From Candidatus Heimdallarchaeota archaeon (GTDB lineage Archaea; Asgardarchaeota; Heimdallarchaeia; Heimdallarchaeales; Heimdallarchaeaceae), in the NCBI GenBank assembly GCA_016839945.1, contig JAEOTE010000072.1:1-28637 (forward strand): a stretch of 28,637 nt of DNA, in the 5' to 3' direction. Below, piece by piece: positions 18,579 to 26,679 of this stretch (the first letter of the stretch is position 1; every line of letters begins with the position of its first letter). The notes under the pieces were generated by a model. The model did no database searches. It was not told where the DNA came from and saw only the letters and a list, made by a program, of their open reading frames with translations. The translations under genes and the position numbers were made by a program.

Positions 18579-20879
18579 TTAGACTTCCACATCACTTGAG
18601 TGGAAGAGTACATCTCTATTTATAGCAGCTTTAAATAATTGTAGTAGTAAATCATTAGTAGTTCTGACAGCTATTGGAATTTCTTCTGCTGTAAGAAAGG
18701 CAAAAATGGCTTCTTGATTGCCATCAAGTATTCCACAATACACATCTCTTTTATCATAATGTTTCATTTTCAAACCAGTAAATCGATCTTGAAGAGGTCT
18801 TAACACTGTTTGATGTTTACTCTTCTCAAAATAAGAAACTAAAGTGACTCGTTGAGCTTTGGTATACTGCATCATTTCTTTTAGTAGTTCTTCATCAAGA
18901 TCAGGTGTAACAAGTAATAATTCGTATTTAGACCTCATTGCAATATCTGTGATACTTGCTTTGATTGCTTCCTCTCCAACAATTATTGATGTATTGTGTT
19001 GTCCTTCAAAAGCATATGATGATGAAGCTCTATCTATTTGTCTTAATTCATCTTCTCTTGTATTAATAACTTGATAGAAGGTCATTGCTTTTTCCATCAA
19101 AGAATCAAGTTGTAAAACAAGAAGTTCATCTACATCCTTAACTACTGACGCTACTTGTGAAACCAATGTATTAATTTGGATTTCTTCTCCTTCTGTTACT
19201 TGTTGTACTATTTGATCCTTTTGTTCATCTTTATAATCCTTCAAATGTTGTTTTGCATTGGTTAATCCTTGAGCAAACTCATCGTTTTTCAAATTAACTT
19301 TGTCCTTGAATTGCACCACTGAGTTTTGTAGTTTTTCTTTCAAATCCAAAGCCATTTTTTCTGAATCTTGTTTTGATTTACTCAATTCTTTTATTGTATC
19401 ATCTTGGAGTTTTTGGAGTACTTGAGATTGTTCAACTGTATAGGTTGAAAATCCCTTTAATGCTTCTTCTTTTGATGAAGTAAGTTGAGAAGATATTGTT
19501 TGTTTTAGCTCTTCAGTTACATTTGAGCAAGAATCATAAGCGGAAGTTGCATATTTTTCTGTTTGATCTTGAAGTAATTCCAATATATTTGTTGGAAGTA
19601 AATCTATTTGTTCAATAGCTACGTCTGTAAGTTGATTTTTCTTTGTTCTTATCGATGTTTCTCCACTAAGTTGGAAATGATCTAATTTTGATCTAATTTG
19701 GTCTCTTACTTCATTTAATGTTAATACATGTTGATCAATTAGCTGTAAACCACTTTCATTAAGATCATTTGCCAGATTTCTTACAGTATCTCTGGCATCT
19801 GTCAAAGGTGATTCAATTTGTTTTCTTGCTTTTCCTAATTTCATAACAGTAGAGGTTTCTATAGCGTTTAGAGCTTCAGCTATCTTTGAAGACAGAAAAT
19901 TTGTTTGTCTATCTATTTGTTCCACACTTCTACGCAATTCTTGTGTTTGCTTTATTTGTTCTGAAAATAGATTATTTACATCTTGAGTCAGAGAATCTAT
20001 AATATTTTTGGATTCATTTGTCCAAGCAGCATATGCTTCTTGCCAAACCTTGTTAAAATTGTCTGAAAATGATTCTTGAATTTCAGTTACATTGGTAATT
20101 AATTCCTTTAATTCATTATCTAAATCAGGAGCTAAATTCGTCAAGTATTCTTTGTGATTTTCAGTATGAGCATCAAGACTGTTAGAAATAACTTGTATTA
20201 AGGAGTCGAATGTTTGTTGAATTTTCTGATCCATTGAACCTAAAATTTGTTCACTTTTTTGTTTAGAAGAATGATTAAATTGTTTGATAAATGCATTAAG
20301 TTCTTGAACATAATTTTCTAATTGAGCGGAAAAAACTAATGGTTGATCCATTATCTTTGTTAAATATCCCTCAACTTCATCTCTTATTCCTTCGATAAAA
20401 TTACTTGCTGAACCCTCAGTTTCATCAACATATTCAACATAGTTCTGATAAAGTGCATCAACTACTTGTTTTATTAATCCACTTACTACATGAATATCAA
20501 AAACATGTCCCTCTCCTGTAAGTTCAAGGGTTCCACCAAACTTTGATTTCTTATCTTGATATTCCGCTTTTGCAGTTTTAAGAGCAGTTATTGTTCCATC
20601 TAGAGAATATAAAGCATCCTTTTCAATAACTATGTATTCCTTAAGGAAAGGTAACAATCCAAAATATACAGGAGTACGACCAGCTGTTTTCTTTAAGAAA
20701 CCAAGTTCTTCTAAATTTTTAACAGATTGAATTAAAGTCAATGGATCTAAACCTGTTACAACTAGGAGCTCTCCTATTGTTACTTTTCCAAGTCCTAAGG
20801 TAGCAGAATAAACTTTGATATCAATTTCATTAAAACCTATACGTGTTAGTAGAGGAGGGAGAATATCTATTTTCGACAT
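18579..20879 (-). CDS. TrmB-like wHTH + long alpha-helical rod + C-terminal TrmB/PLD-like domain protein
   Basis: N-terminus GFNEIDIKVYSATLGLGKVT...LEELGFLKKTAGRTPVYFGLLP; several hundred Q/E/K/L/S-rich helical residues; C-terminus IVGEEAIKASITDIAMRSKYELLLVTP...GILDGNQEAIF...AVRTTN. Start at 20879 or 20888 is more plausible than 20984. Confidence 0.8.
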   Translation of the reverse strand: MSKIDILPPLLTRIGFNEIDIKVYSATLGLGKVTIGELLVVTGLDPLTLIQSVKNLEELGFLKKTAGRTPVYFGLLPFLKEYIVIEKDALYSLDGTITALKTAKAEYQDKKSKFGGTLELTGEGHVFDIHVVSGLIKQVVDALYQNYVEYVDETEGSASNFIEGIRDEVEGYLTKIMDQPLVFSAQLENYVQELNAFIKQFNHSSKQKSEQILGSMDQKIQQTFDSLIQVISNSLDAHTENHKEYLTNLAPDLDNELKELITNVTEIQESFSDNFNKVWQEAYAAWTNESKNIIDSLTQDVNNLFSEQIKQTQELRRSVEQIDRQTNFLSSKIAEALNAIETSTVMKLGKARKQIESPLTDARDTVRNLANDLNESGLQLIDQHVLTLNEVRDQIRSKLDHFQLSGETSIRTKKNQLTDVAIEQIDLLPTNILELLQDQTEKYATSAYDSCSNVTEELKQTISSQLTSSKEEALKGFSTYTVEQSQVLQKLQDDTIKELSKSKQDSEKMALDLKEKLQNSVVQFKDKVNLKNDEFAQGLTNAKQHLKDYKDEQKDQIVQQVTEGEEIQINTLVSQVASVVKDVDELLVLQLDSLMEKAMTFYQVINTREDELRQIDRASSSYAFEGQHNTSIIVGEEAIKASITDIAMRSKYELLLVTPDLDEELLKEMMQYTKAQRVTLVSYFEKSKHQTVLRPLQDRFTGLKMKHYDKRDVYCGILDGNQEAIFAFLTAEEIPIAVRTTNDLLLQLFKAAINRDVLFHSSDVEV

Positions 20880-21008
20880 ATTATTCATCCAACATTTTTT
20901 GCTTTTGATAACTAGGTATTTGTTTAATAAATAAGTCTTATTACAATATAAAAATAATTTAATATCCTTAAAAAGAATATACAAAAGGCAATAAACAGTA
21001 ACTAAAAT

Positions 21009-22452: not shown

Positions 22453-23022
22453 ATGGCAGCAGGACAAAGAAAAATATTCAAAATAACTTTGCTAGGAGAT
22501 GGAGCTGTAGGAAAAACTTCGTTAAGGAAGACTTACTTAGGGGAAGGATTCAAAGACGGATACTCTATGACAATAGGTGCTGATTTTGCAGTAAAAAGAC
22601 TTCGAATTGATGATCAGGACTTTGTTGCACAAATTTGGGATCTTGCAGGTCAGCAAAGATTTTCTGCTGTTCGTGAGGTTTATTATCGTGGGACATCTGG
22701 ATGTTTGCTTGTTTTCGATATTTCACGAAGATCGAGCTTTGAGAATATTCCTTCTTGGATCGCAGAACTTCTCAAGAATAATAGTAATAGAGTAGTTCCA
22801 ATTGTGTTAATTGGTAATAAATCCGATTTACGCGCTACAGCTAAAGATCCAATAATGCGAGAACAATCTGAAGAATATGCACGTTCTCTTTCACAGTGGT
22901 CTGGTTTTTCAGTTCCTTATATTGAAACTTCTGCTAAAACTGGTGAAAATGTAGATGAAGCCTTCAAAACTTTACTGAAAAACATAGTACTATTCTATGA
23001 AAAACTCTACGCCCAACAATAA
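22453..23022 (+). CDS. Rab-like small GTPase (Ras superfamily)
   Basis: G1 GDGAVGKT, G2 TIGADF, G3 WDLAGQ, G4 NKSD, G5 ETSAK; RabF-like motifs; no C-terminal Cys. Confidence 0.95.
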   Translation: MAAGQRKIFKITLLGDGAVGKTSLRKTYLGEGFKDGYSMTIGADFAVKRLRIDDQDFVAQIWDLAGQQRFSAVREVYYRGTSGCLLVFDISRRSSFENIPSWIAELLKNNSNRVVPIVLIGNKSDLRATAKDPIMREQSEEYARSLSQWSGFSVPYIETSAKTGENVDEAFKTLLKNIVLFYEKLYAQQ

Positions 23023-23032
23023 GTGATTTTTT

Positions 23033-23842
23033 TTATTCCACTTTATCTTTCTCATTTTCTGTTAGTGCAGCTTTTACGTTCATCGTTTCTTCATCAAAAG
23101 AAGGATGTAAAGAAACAGTTTCGTCTTCATTAATTACTAAGATTCGCATTTCTTCTAATTCTCTAATGTATCTTCTAGTTTGTGATAAAGACACTCCTAG
23201 AACAAATGATAGTTGAATTGGAGCAATAACACCCATTCTTCGTAATAGAGTAATAATGTTAAATCTTGGATCTGTTCTTACTAAACGTTCAAACACATCT
23301 TTTTGTTTATCCCACTTAATTTTATCTTCTTCTACTGATTTTAGTCTATCCTTCAGAGTTTTTTTCTCCGTTTCCATTGCTACTAATTGATCTGACAATT
23401 CGTAGATTAGTGACTCTCTCTCTTCCAATAAAAGCTTCATCAATTCTTTTTCGCTTTCAGGATCTGATTCTACATCGAATTTTTCTAAATCTATCTGTTT
23501 TGTTTCTTGAAGCATATTGTTTTTCTTCTTTGGTGCAACAGAAAGCATGCTTGACAAGAAGTTAAATAATCTGAAAAATTCTGATTTCATCTCTGATACT
23601 ATAAGTTCTGAAGAATTTTCTAATAACTCATTAACATATTCAAGAGCAGGAGATAATTCTAGAATTTCCTTACTTCTTCTTGAAGATTTTCTGGCTTTAA
23701 CATCTTTATCTTTCTGTGATTTTACATTATTTTTCATTTCTTTTACTTCTTCAGATAATTTCTCTATCTCATTGGCTATGTTAGAAAAATCAGGATCTTC
23801 TTCTCTTGTATCTTCATTTTCATTGTAGTCCATTATTACCAC
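23033..23842 (-). CDS. Coiled-coil protein with C-terminal winged helix
   Basis: Charged heptad-like segments followed by DPRFNIITLLRRMG...QLSFVLGVSLSQTRRYIRELEEMRILVI. The GTG start overlaps the upstream TAG; an alternative ATG is at 23833. Confidence 0.75.
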   Translation of the reverse strand: MVIMDYNENEDTREEDPDFSNIANEIEKLSEEVKEMKNNVKSQKDKDVKARKSSRRSKEILELSPALEYVNELLENSSELIVSEMKSEFFRLFNFLSSMLSVAPKKKNNMLQETKQIDLEKFDVESDPESEKELMKLLLEERESLIYELSDQLVAMETEKKTLKDRLKSVEEDKIKWDKQKDVFERLVRTDPRFNIITLLRRMGVIAPIQLSFVLGVSLSQTRRYIRELEEMRILVINEDETVSLHPSFDEETMNVKAALTENEKDKVE

Positions 23843-24675
23843 TATATTTTTGCTGTTGATTCGATTTTGAAACCTTCTGCTTCTGAAGGTGTTAGTTCCA
23901 AAGTTTCGCTTATGTAAGCTACTCCCATCAATTTTGTTATTGTAAAATTATCTTTAATTCTACTTCCAACTACATTTCGTGAGAAATAGAATATCCCTTG
24001 AGCAGCATTCATAATAATTCTTTCAGCAACTGGTTCTAAGACATCCTGTGGCAATAAAAAGAAATGAACTCCACCTATTTTTGCGAAAGACATGATAGAT
24101 TCTTTAAGAAAAGTGATCAATGCGTTTGCATCTTCATCTAATCTATCTTCCTTCATCCATAATAAATCATCAAAAACACTAAAACACTGTTTTTTTTGTG
24201 TTTCTTTAACATGTTTCATTCTCTCTATTATTTTTTTTACGTAAGTTTTTCTTCTGACTTCTATCTTTCCTAACTTCAGAGTTGTGTTCATTGCTGTACT
24301 TGATAAATCAAACATATTTTCGAAATACCAGTTTTTGTTCTCATAAGGAGAAACATCCCACTCATATGCTTGGAAAGAACGTAAAACATGATCATAAGGA
24401 CGACCACTGTGAACATAAAAAATAACATTGTCTCCAGATTTTTCTGCTAAATTTAGCATTATTCTTTGAGTGAATAAAGTTGGAATAACAGTTTCAGAAG
24501 GATAGCTAACAAGTATAAGAGAGCCTTCAGGTAAACCTCTTCTTGCAGAAAGTTCCATTCCTAATTTTTGGTCTAATGACCGAATACCTGTTAATATTAA
24601 CTCTCCTCTTGAATCCTTGTTGGACACTTTTTTTCCAACTCGTTCTATTCCGCTTTGGGGAGTTCCTACGTCCAT
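23842..24675 (-). CDS. KaiC/RAD55-like RecA-fold protein, predicted catalytically inactive
   Basis: TGIRSLDQKLG...GLPEGSLILV is the KaiC N-terminal signature. The Walker A position reads YPSETVIPT, Walker B SVFDDL, and the arginine-finger position ITKLMG. Confidence 0.8.
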   Translation of the reverse strand: MDVGTPQSGIERVGKKVSNKDSRGELILTGIRSLDQKLGMELSARRGLPEGSLILVSYPSETVIPTLFTQRIMLNLAEKSGDNVIFYVHSGRPYDHVLRSFQAYEWDVSPYENKNWYFENMFDLSSTAMNTTLKLGKIEVRRKTYVKKIIERMKHVKETQKKQCFSVFDDLLWMKEDRLDEDANALITFLKESIMSFAKIGGVHFFLLPQDVLEPVAERIIMNAAQGIFYFSRNVVGSRIKDNFTITKLMGVAYISETLELTPSEAEGFKIESTAKI

Positions 24676-24704
24676 TAAACATTCCTCGAATGTGTAATTA
24701 TTAA

Positions 24705-25220
24705 TTAAAATTGTTCTAGTTCTCTTAAGGCTAGTTCTAAATCTGAAATGAATTCATCTTGAACTTTCTTCTCTTCAACTACAACAGGTTCAACAGGTTT
24801 AGGATCAACGGGTTGAACCTCAGGAGTAGGAAGTGGTTTTGCTTCTATATCTAAGATGTTTCTTATCTTTTCAGCTGCAATTTTCATAGTTCTTCTAACC
24901 ATCCCAAGCGCTACACCTGTATCAGTTATCAGACATAAAACTGTGCTTCCACAACTAGCAACTAAGATTAATCCATCTGAAAACTCTGAGATAATGATAT
25001 CTAGTTCAGCTAGACCAACATTTGTTCCTTGTTGTTCACTAGCTAGATATACTGCGCTTGCAATAGCTCCAAGAGCTTCTGTTTCAAATTCATCGAATGC
25101 AAAACGTGAAGAATATGCCAGAGTTAAACCTGTCTTATCAGCTAATATTACATGATTAATATTAGCATCACTTGTAATTATTTCATGCAGAATTGTATTA
25201 ATTTGATCAGCACCATGCAA
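24705..25220 (-). CDS. Roadblock/LC7 (MglB-like) protein with Pro-rich linker and C-terminal amphipathic helix
   Basis: VILADKTGLTLA, ALGAIASA, IISEFSDGLILV and ALGMVR motifs. The TTG at 25220 follows GGTGA; the ORF track start is 25238. Confidence 0.88.
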   Translation of the reverse strand: MHGADQINTILHEIITSDANINHVILADKTGLTLAYSSRFAFDEFETEALGAIASAVYLASEQQGTNVGLAELDIIISEFSDGLILVASCGSTVLCLITDTGVALGMVRRTMKIAAEKIRNILDIEAKPLPTPEVQPVDPKPVEPVVVEEKKVQDEFISDLELALRELEQF

Positions 25221-25349
25221 ATAAATCACCAAGTACAACTTGAAGTTTCTTATGTTTAGTTTGTGATTACCCTATTTAAAGATTTCAAATGTTGTAGTCA
25301 TACATTTATTACAAGGAAATTTTTTAAACACCACATACTTTGTAGTATC

Positions 25350-26033
25350 ATGTCTAAAATTAGTCTTCCAGTGATTATTCTTAATTTTAAAAATTATACT
25401 GAAACAACAGGTAAGAAAGGTTTAGAACTAACAAAAATTGCTGAAGAAGTAGCAAAAGAAAAAGAAGCTGAAATCATAGTTTGTCCTCAAACTGCGGATA
25501 TTAGATTAATCTCATCAAATGTAGAAATACCAGTTTTCGCCCAGCATGTAGATTCGAACGATCCTGGGAGTCATACTGGGAATAACTTAATGGAAACTTT
25601 GATTGAAAGTGGTGCAAATGGTTCCCTAGTAAATCATTCTGAGCACCGATTGAAATTAGCAGATATTGAAAAAATAGTTACAAAAGCAAATAAAAATAAA
25701 TTCTTTACCTGTGTTTGTTCAAATAACATTCAAACAAGTAAAGCAATATCTGCATTATCACCAGATGCTTGTGCCATGGAACCTCCAGAGCTTATAGGTA
25801 GTGGTGTTTCAGTTACAACAAAACCAGATTTAATAAAAAAAACCATTTCAGCTATCAATAATATTAATGATGAAGTTTATCCTTTAGTTGGTGCAGGTGT
25901 AACTACTGCAAATGATATTATTGAAGCACTCCGCTTAGGAGCAAAAGGAGTTCTTCTAGCTTCAGGTTTTGTAAAAGCAAACAATCCTAAAAAAGTTCTG
26001 CAAGAAATGGCTAATGCTTTAAAAGAGAAATGA
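25350..26033 (+). CDS. tpiA: Triosephosphate isomerase (archaeal type)
   Basis: ILNFKNY, AQHVD, LVNHSEHR, EPPELIG, GAGV and GVLLASG motifs; ATG at 25350. Confidence 0.96.
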   Translation: MSKISLPVIILNFKNYTETTGKKGLELTKIAEEVAKEKEAEIIVCPQTADIRLISSNVEIPVFAQHVDSNDPGSHTGNNLMETLIESGANGSLVNHSEHRLKLADIEKIVTKANKNKFFTCVCSNNIQTSKAISALSPDACAMEPPELIGSGVSVTTKPDLIKKTISAINNINDEVYPLVGAGVTTANDIIEALRLGAKGVLLASGFVKANNPKKVLQEMANALKEK

Positions 26034-26061: not shown

Positions 26062-26529
26062 TTATTCATTCTTTTTCCACATTATTTTTTCTCCTTGTTG
26101 GATTTGAGTTAAAATCCCTGCTTCCTCCATTTGTTGAAGAGTTTTTGAAAATTCTTCCTTGGAAAGCGGTGCGTTACCTTGTTTCATAACTGCAAATTGG
26201 CATGATGCAAAAATTGCATCCTCAAACATAAATTTCGAAGAACCATATGATTCTAGAATTAAATCTGAGTTAGGAATATCATTATCTTTAACTACAGGTT
26301 TTTCTTTCTTGATTTCCTTTTCTTTTGTTTCCACTTTAGTTGCAACTTGTCCAGCTATCATATCACTTAAACCTTTACCATCAATTGATTCTCCAAAACC
26401 ATGTAATTCAGCTAACCAATGTAGAGCATGTGATACAAAGGTTTCAACAGATTCAAATTTCTCTTCCTCAACTAATTTTTCTATATGTTTGTAAAGTCCT
26501 TCAGGAATCTTAATTTCAAGTTCTTTCAT
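26062..26529 (-). CDS. Ribbon-helix-helix (CopG-like) + C-terminal winged-helix-like protein
   Basis: N-terminus ELEIKIPEGLYKHIEKLVEEEKFESVETFVSHAL fits RHH; C-terminus LSKEEFSKTLQQMEEAGILTQIQQGEKIMWKK fits a wHTH recognition helix and wing. Confidence 0.65.
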   Translation of the reverse strand: MKELEIKIPEGLYKHIEKLVEEEKFESVETFVSHALHWLAELHGFGESIDGKGLSDMIAGQVATKVETKEKEIKKEKPVVKDNDIPNSDLILESYGSSKFMFEDAIFASCQFAVMKQGNAPLSKEEFSKTLQQMEEAGILTQIQQGEKIMWKKNE

Positions 26530-26679
26530 TTCTTTAACTCCAATAATGTGATTAATTAAATGATACATTAAATATCCAAAGCTGTTTTAAAGGTTTTTTC
26601 TTAATTGCTTATTGTATAGAAACAGAAAAACTCTATAGTAATAAAATAAAGTCTTTTCTAAAATAATCAATGTAAGAAT

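Follow-up and report, generated by a model that had tools for sequence, protein, structure and literature searches.

An MglB-type roadblock gene apart from mglA, in an operon with an inactivated KaiC-fold protein and a coiled-coil winged-helix protein in one order of Heimdallarchaeia

Described relatives and the layout of the locus

Coupling of the small GTPase MglA to the roadblock protein MglB, as well as the existence of orphan MglB genes, has been described for prokaryotes (Wuichet and Sogaard-Andersen 2014, PMC4316618), and MglA and MglB homologues or pairs have been noted and modelled in Asgard archaea (PMC10933270; PMC13408092). In the conservons of actinobacteria, a roadblock protein (CvnB) is combined with a sensor kinase (CvnA), CvnC and a GTPase of the MglA group (CvnD), and an Asgard operon of a LAMTOR1-like roadblock gene, a Rab-like GTPase and a DENN gene has been reported in a preprint (Liu et al., 10.1101/2020.10.19.343400). 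KaiC-like ATPases, for their part, have been proposed as archaeal signalling hubs (Makarova, Galperin and Koonin 2017, cited in PMC5847659), and inactivated KaiC (iKaiC) domains are a recognised class (PMC5847659). Here we analyse a stretch of 28,637 nt from a Candidatus Heimdallarchaeota archaeon (contig JAEOTE010000072.1 of assembly GCA_016839945.1), referred to in full length as the window, in which genes for an MglB-type roadblock protein, an iKaiC and a coiled-coil winged helix-turn-helix (wHTH) protein, collectively the trio, face the gene of a Rab-like small GTPase. The reading that we favour, with moderate confidence, is that a displaced MglB is encoded first in an operon specific to this lineage, ahead of a dead KaiC and a coiled-coil wHTH protein, and that its likeliest G-protein partner is a distant MglA. 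The elements of the locus are the following.

22453-23022, plus strand: Rab-like small GTPase, 189 amino acids (aa); Pfam Ras, 4e-49
23023-23032: spacer between the convergent stop codons, 10 nt, GTGATTTTTT, the T run of which extends into the adjoining stop codon
23033-23842, minus strand: coiled-coil wHTH protein, 269 aa from a GTG start
23842-24675, minus strand: KaiC-fold protein (iKaiC), 277 aa; Pfam KaiC, 2.2e-7
24676-24704: spacer between the roadblock and KaiC-like genes, 29 nt in the sequence
24705-25238, minus strand: MglB-type roadblock protein, counted from the first TTG; Pfam Robl_LC7, 1.2e-7
24705-24760, minus strand: C-terminal amphipathic helix of the roadblock protein, with the motif DLxxALxELExF at its extreme end, plus the stop codon

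A preliminary description of this DNA had reported three co-oriented minus-strand genes with a 29-nt gap, a 1-nt TAG/GTG overlap (between the stop of the iKaiC gene and the start of the wHTH gene) and 10 nt to the stop of the GTPase gene, and the sequence bears out this layout in every detail. An ATG lies 9 nt inside the GTG start of the wHTH gene, and the alignment of orthologues makes the TTG at 25220, which is the next in-frame TTG, or a position just after it, the likely start of the roadblock gene. Since the stop codons of the GTPase and wHTH genes are convergent, co-transcription of the GTPase with the trio is ruled out.

The gene-neighbourhood check across relatives, suggested in the preliminary description, found the order and orientation of the trio kept in four families of a single Heimdallarchaeial order, among them the family labelled f1 (genera g1, g10 and g11), f4 and four genera of f3, with intergenic gaps ranging from -1 to about 250 nt. 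The flanking genes vary between families and include ABCE1, A-ATPase subunit B, a phosphate transporter and a major facilitator superfamily transporter; genera g3 and g8 have the three genes in dispersed positions. The related contigs are labelled Heimdallarchaeota (including AB_125 and Ca. Heimdallarchaeum) and Kariarchaeota. Two metatranscriptome datasets contain contigs of relatives that are 90-97% identical to parts of the stretch, one of them (24485-24740) joining the KaiC-like gene and the roadblock gene over the 29-nt spacer and another (23812-24150) spanning the junction of the KaiC-like and wHTH genes, both at a depth of 2-4. These datasets cover a fraction of 0.06-0.08 of the stretch, the uncovered parts, including the wHTH gene, being uninformative, and the contigs are weak evidence, compatible with co-transcription of the trio. 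From its conservation and spacing we conclude that the trio is a conserved, tightly packed unit, an operon of one Heimdallarchaeial order (AB_125, Ca. Heimdallarchaeum, Kariarchaeaceae).

The roadblock protein and its separation from MglA

The roadblock protein consists of a Robl core, a variable proline-rich linker and a conserved C-terminal helix. Its best sequence matches in the PDB are to M. xanthus MglB (4e-5 to 7e-5 over residues 3-139), followed by CvnB5 and LAMTOR2, and it matches the NCBIfam MglB model at 7.8e-5, far under the equivalog cut-off; it has a roadblock/LC7 fold with MglB as the closest solved relative and, as in MglB, a C-terminal helix that follows a flexible linker. The motif of this helix is found in 12 of 12 orthologues from the order, with five residues invariant among them. 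The gene is present in a single copy in the genome of the window (G000), and a profile of the roadblock proteins of the order finds matches in 277 of the 301 Asgard genomes that make up our phylum sample, usually one in each, with E-values of 1e-40 to 1e-50. By these sequence criteria the gene is the orthologue of a near-universal Asgard MglB-type protein.

The surroundings of this orthologue were compared in 18 loci from 11 other Asgard families. In 11 of the loci, from eight of the families, it lies directly upstream of a gene for an approximately 190-aa GTPase, and small Robl genes usually stand on both sides. The orthologue of this GTPase in the genome of the window has its best matches in the MglA proteins of Thermus and Myxococcus (2e-31 and 3e-28) and has retained both the switch-I arginine and the TxxGQ form of the G3 motif. 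Both its MglB-type sequence and the coupling of its orthologues to MglA thus support the preliminary view that the roadblock protein is of a kind that regulates small GTPases. The own MglA gene is found in the following surroundings.

G000 contig 151, 33186-33749: MglA-type GTPase, orthologue of the roadblock-adjacent GTPase of other families
G000 contig 151, about 33804-34106 (locus L138): 100-aa roadblock gene, separated from the MglA gene by a 54-nt gap

We conclude that this pair is a remnant of the ancestral cluster, from the middle of which the long roadblock gene is gone. MglA orthologues are present in 40 of 41 genomes of the order, on contigs other than those of the trio, and still stand beside the 100-aa Robl gene with no long Robl gene in between. 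Because the orthologues of the long roadblock gene elsewhere adjoin MglA and the MglA cluster of the order lacks the long gene, the latter must have moved from the ancestral cluster to the front of the KaiC-like gene. The motif of the terminal helix predates this move, since it is also present in other Asgard families in which the roadblock gene adjoins MglA. With MglA on contig 151 and the roadblock gene on contig 43, no mglA gene is located within four genes, the distance by which coupling has been defined (Wuichet and Sogaard-Andersen 2014, PMC4316618), and the gene of the window is therefore an orphan MglB orthologue by that definition. Elsewhere in the phylum, families f8 (loci L120 and L136) and f6 (L124 and L125) have the MglB-type gene in a group of two to four clustered roadblock genes that lacks a GTPase neighbour, which means that the separation from MglA took place repeatedly in Asgard archaea.

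The sequence of the roadblock protein is sharply diverged in the order. Among 12 sequences from the 11 other families, the mean identity of the roadblock core is 74% (66-88%, apart from one near-identical pair of the same family), compared to 49% between these families, those of the same class included, and the order of the window; within the order it is about 60%. There is no comparable jump in MglA, the mean identity of which is 54% among the other families and 51% between them and the order, so that outside the order the roadblock core is the more conserved of the two proteins. In a maximum-likelihood tree of the roadblock sequences the order forms a clade with 100/100 support, and the stem of this clade is about 1.8 changes per column long. 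These comparisons indicate that the constraint on the roadblock protein changed along with the move.

Like the MglA-MglB systems of Myxococcus xanthus and Thermus thermophilus, the locus encodes an MglB-like roadblock protein with a flexibly linked terminal helix, most sampled Asgard orthologues of which are coupled to a GTPase with the hallmarks of MglA. It differs from them in that mglB is apart from mglA and leads an operon whose other genes encode a dead KaiC and a coiled-coil wHTH protein, and in that the roadblock sequence is sharply diverged. In the literature searched, neither a dead KaiC nor a coiled-coil wHTH protein was found as part of a described MglA/MglB system.

The KaiC-fold and winged-helix proteins and the Rab-like neighbour

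In the KaiC-fold protein, the Pfam KaiC match is confined to residues 29-165, that is, to the N-terminal half. The AlphaFold model (predicted template modelling score, pTM, 0.81) was matched by Foldseek over its whole length, about 250 columns, to SSO2452, FlaH/ArlH, KaiC CI and PH0284, with E-values of 7e-13 to 1e-11 and template modelling scores of 0.6-0.8. The Walker A pattern GxxxxGK[TS] is absent, the corresponding segment being PSETVIPT in the window and PPxTNLGT in the consensus, and its lysine is replaced by Val, Leu or Ile in 15 of 15 aligned orthologues. The modelled KaiC/RecA-type fold and the uniform loss of the lysine sustain the designation as a dead KaiC given in the preliminary description, and we regard the protein as a presumably nucleotide-dead, inactivated member of the KaiC fold and do not class it as an ATPase. 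It shares with the iKaiC class and the KaiC-like hubs a single domain of the KaiC/RecA fold, in this case with a destroyed P-loop, and a location next to genes for putative signalling and HTH partners; it differs from the iKaiC class in its taxonomic range, since its family is restricted to one Asgard order and the P-loop-less relatives found elsewhere in that archaeal class are more distant.

The iKaiC gene is matched in 37 of 41 genomes of the order, and in the phylum sample of 301 genomes matches at the level of orthologues are found only in its four families. More distant P-loop-less homologues occur in the sister families f5 and f6 of the same class and in one genome outside the class (f15). 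These were considered as an extension of the operon and rejected: the Walker A lysine is lost in them as well, but no roadblock or wHTH gene is adjacent. In f5 (L099, L100, L101 and L108) the homologue converges on an operon that contains a Ras-family GTPase and a metallophosphoesterase gene, with a DnaJ gene beyond, an arrangement that is kept within one genus.

The model of the third protein has long helices at residues 19-101 and 128-190, followed by a wHTH domain at residues 190-250, with a predicted local distance difference test value (pLDDT) of about 90. The best Foldseek matches of this domain are to MarR, ArsR/CadC and AspA, at weak E-values of 5e-3 to 3e-2, and Pfam gives a weak HTH_24 match (0.005), under the cut-off; a profile search against solved structures yielded mostly coiled-coil noise. 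The protein is, as modelled, a putative DNA-binding protein with a winged helix of the MarR/ArsR type. Its C-terminal 135 residues match 38 of 44 sampled genomes of the order (G000 included) and, outside the order, give only seven weak matches in the phylum sample, the matches to the domain being restricted to the same four families as the iKaiC orthologues. One genome of f1 (G232, locus L105, genus g13) has no wHTH gene at this place, the KaiC-like and GTPase genes abutting directly, and the C-terminal query did not find one elsewhere in this 91%-complete genome.

The GTPase encoded on the opposite strand has a Ras-superfamily G domain that is closest to Rabs, the best solved relative being a Thorarchaeota Rab (7ezb, 9.5e-40), followed by Rab7/Ypt7 and Rab11 and also Rab2 and Rab1. 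It ends in ...EKLYAQQ, with no cysteine in the last 20 residues and hence no C-terminal cysteine prenylation motif; Thor-Rab likewise has no eukaryotic prenylation motif (PMC10933270). The term Rab-like, used in the preliminary description, is thus the right one. The identity of the protein among 23 species-level genomes of the genus is 97-100%, compared to 58-92% for its neighbours; to that of Ca. Heimdallarchaeum it is 92.5%, compared to 61% for the KaiC-like and 37% for the wHTH protein. The GTPase is therefore under a constraint that is unusually strong for a small GTPase.

Its position is variable. In all four genera of f1 that have it, the gene lies within 1.5 kb of the trio, in differing arrangements; in Ca. 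Heimdallarchaeum an endonuclease III gene intervenes and the GTPase gene is not convergent. The orthologues of f3 and f4 (68-69% identical, reciprocal best hits) are on contigs other than those of the trio, as is the best match in f2 (66%, one-way). In f3 the orthologue stands beside a thioredoxin-V4R protein and a small coiled-coil protein, and in f4 beside housekeeping genes. At the f3 loci (L113:3314-5943, L115 and L116), the upstream protein is of about 500 aa and combines thioredoxin with tandem V4R (a Bet3-like fold), and the coiled-coil protein (121-127 aa) is encoded 0-80 nt downstream; these surroundings may be the real conserved context of the Rab-like GTPase. The V4R protein of G000 is encoded on contig 186. 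The preliminary description had placed the Rab-like GTPase at the hub of the system and named its synteny with a conserved trio as the point to check: the trio is indeed conserved, the GTPase is syntenic with it only in f1, and the ancestral neighbour of the roadblock gene is MglA, which speaks against the hub. The Rab-like GTPase is a neighbour that is transcribed separately and has stayed close to the trio in f1 only, and it is probably not the target of the operon.

The other genes flanking the locus are ordinary, namely those for endonuclease III, a DUF6512 membrane protein, triosephosphate isomerase and a small ribbon-helix-helix/HTH protein. Three further features of the window are of note.

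18579-20984, minus strand: TrmB-like regulator of 801 aa with a long helical rod
25263-26033, plus strand: triosephosphate isomerase, open reading frame as listed, with a GTG start and a 29-residue extension; Pfam match from residue 36
26062-26568, minus strand: protein of 168 aa, ribbon-helix-helix-like near the N terminus and with a weak HTH_20 match near the C terminus

The TrmB-like gene is located a few kb from the trio in f1, f2 and several genera of f3, which indicates an old regional synteny. The 168-aa protein is encoded near the trio in f1, beyond the triosephosphate isomerase gene, and its counterpart in the f2 genome (L034:1178-1648) lies directly between the roadblock and GTPase genes. 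For triosephosphate isomerase, an internal ATG near 25350 appears to be the more plausible start, and would leave a divergent promoter region of about 110-130 nt common to this gene and the roadblock gene.

The partner of the displaced roadblock protein

On the reading that we favour, the MglB-type roadblock gene would have left the mglA cluster in the ancestor of the order, MglA remaining with the small roadblock gene, and the long roadblock gene would have come to head a unit whose other two members, the pseudo-ATPase of the KaiC fold and the coiled-coil wHTH protein, are specific to the lineage. The roadblock dimer would still act on the distant MglA via its conserved platform and C-terminal helix, the dead KaiC would serve as a non-catalytic adaptor or sensor, and the wHTH protein, as a coiled-coil dimer, would provide the output by binding DNA or another winged-helix partner; these last two roles are the simplest that we infer for the lineage-specific proteins. 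A prediction of the complex of two roadblock copies with the iKaiC, made from alignment inputs and run without controls, gave no verdict (score 0.00) and counts for neither side.

Several observations weigh against this reading. The sharp divergence of the roadblock protein could mean that it no longer serves MglA at all, and the small roadblock neighbour of MglA may suffice for it. In f6, f8 and f14 the roadblock orthologue is not adjacent to MglA either, the RNA contigs are shallow, come from relatives and could reflect DNA carry-over, and every pairing or activity in the model is a predicted one. Furthermore, in the single genome that represents f2 (G025), a different Ras-family GTPase (L034:1661-2248), 31% identical to that of the window and with no orthologue in f1, is encoded co-directionally with the wHTH gene, 16 nt beyond it, the sole case of a GTPase inside the unit, and the distant KaiC homologue of f5 lies two genes from yet another Ras-family GTPase. 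Given the tens of small GTPases in these genomes, this recurrence of Ras-family GTPases near the gene set is suggestive, at most, of some link to Ras/Rab-like GTPases.

Among the alternatives, the one that fares best, although we consider it unlikely, is that the roadblock dimer has taken the dead KaiC, itself of the P-loop fold, as its partner, so that the trio would function without any small GTPase, for example as a regulator of transcription or chromatin through the wHTH protein. The iKaiC gene is located downstream of the roadblock gene, in the place that MglA occupies elsewhere, the roadblock protein diverged strongly in exactly the order in which this arrangement is found and MglA did not, MglA has a small roadblock neighbour of its own, and roadblock domains are regarded as general NTPase (nucleoside triphosphatase) regulators (Koonin and Aravind 2000, as cited in PMC10933270). 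The order has, however, conserved the motif of the C-terminal helix, the part with which bacterial MglB binds MglA.

Less probable still is the four-part, conservon-like switch put forward in the preliminary description, in which the roadblock protein would be the GTPase-activating protein or guanine nucleotide exchange factor of the adjacent Rab-like GTPase, the dead KaiC a scaffold or sensor and the coiled-coil wHTH protein the effector. The proximity of the GTPase to the trio throughout the f1 genera that hold it, its persistence directly beside the iKaiC gene in G232 despite the missing wHTH gene, and the co-directional GTPase of f2 are all in its favour; by a rough, post hoc estimate, a GTPase is found beside the trio in two of about seven independent arrangements, compared to about 2-3% per locus expected by chance, each genome having 17-37 small-GTPase matches in 3.0 Mb. 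Yet in f1 the GTPase gene is convergent or separate and never forms one transcription unit with the trio, its arrangement differs between genera, and the counterparts in the other three families are elsewhere; the entire 10-kb region is syntenic within f1, so that adjacency there carries little weight, and the conserved neighbour of the roadblock family across the phylum is MglA and not a Rab-like GTPase. The analogy with conservons is a loose one: a roadblock member (with a weak match to CvnB5), a possible HTH protein and a P-loop-fold protein are present, but the last is a dead KaiC, the operon contains no GTPase, the nearby GTPase is convergent and Rab-like, and the eight proteins scanned at the locus include no match to a sensor kinase or DUF742, so that the roadblock member is the only one of the four conservon genes that is represented. 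With the LAMTOR1-like operon of Liu et al. the locus shares a roadblock-superfamily gene near a Rab-like GTPase in Asgard archaea, and differs from it in having a roadblock protein of the MglB type and a Rab-like gene that stands outside the operon; none of the genes scanned at the locus has a DENN-domain match. Finally, that the genes are mere neighbours, with no joint function, in a slowly rearranging housekeeping region (triosephosphate isomerase, endonuclease III, the TrmB-like regulator, ABCE1) would agree with a synteny that reaches the triosephosphate isomerase and TrmB-like genes across families and with the dispersal in g3 and g8, but is very improbable given the overlapping or near-abutting frames, the order and orientation kept in four families while the flanks change, and the identical restricted distribution of the iKaiC and wHTH proteins.

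In the literature searched, which did not cover the 2017 paper on KaiC hubs, neither an operon of roadblock, dead KaiC and wHTH genes nor the relocation of MglB is described. Small GTPases and their roadblock and longin regulators are central to the debate on the Asgard origin of the eukaryotic trafficking and polarity machinery. The pairing of Asgard GTPases with their regulators has been considered hard since they rarely occur in operons (PMC10933270); the highly conserved MglB-MglA cluster shared by Asgard archaea makes this pairing assignable, and the locus described here warns against taking the adjacent Rab-like gene as the target from its position alone. We also entertain, as a speculative proposal with a limited chance of being right, that the MglB dimer docks on the dead KaiC instead of, or besides, MglA and, via the wHTH protein, couples a polarity-type G-protein switch to DNA or gene expression; a roadblock platform shaped by evolution for the regulation of a small GTPase would thereby have been transferred to a pseudo-NTPase from another P-loop class. 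If true, this would be a link from a GTPase regulator to chromatin that is undescribed in any prokaryote, in the class of archaea to which the closest known relatives of eukaryotes belong. In one Heimdallarchaeial order the MglB-MglA pairing has been broken and MglB joined with a dead KaiC and a wHTH protein, accompanied by a burst of sequence change, and this natural rewiring could reveal what the MglB platform can bind beyond G proteins and how a pseudo-ATPase of the KaiC family acts in archaeal signalling.

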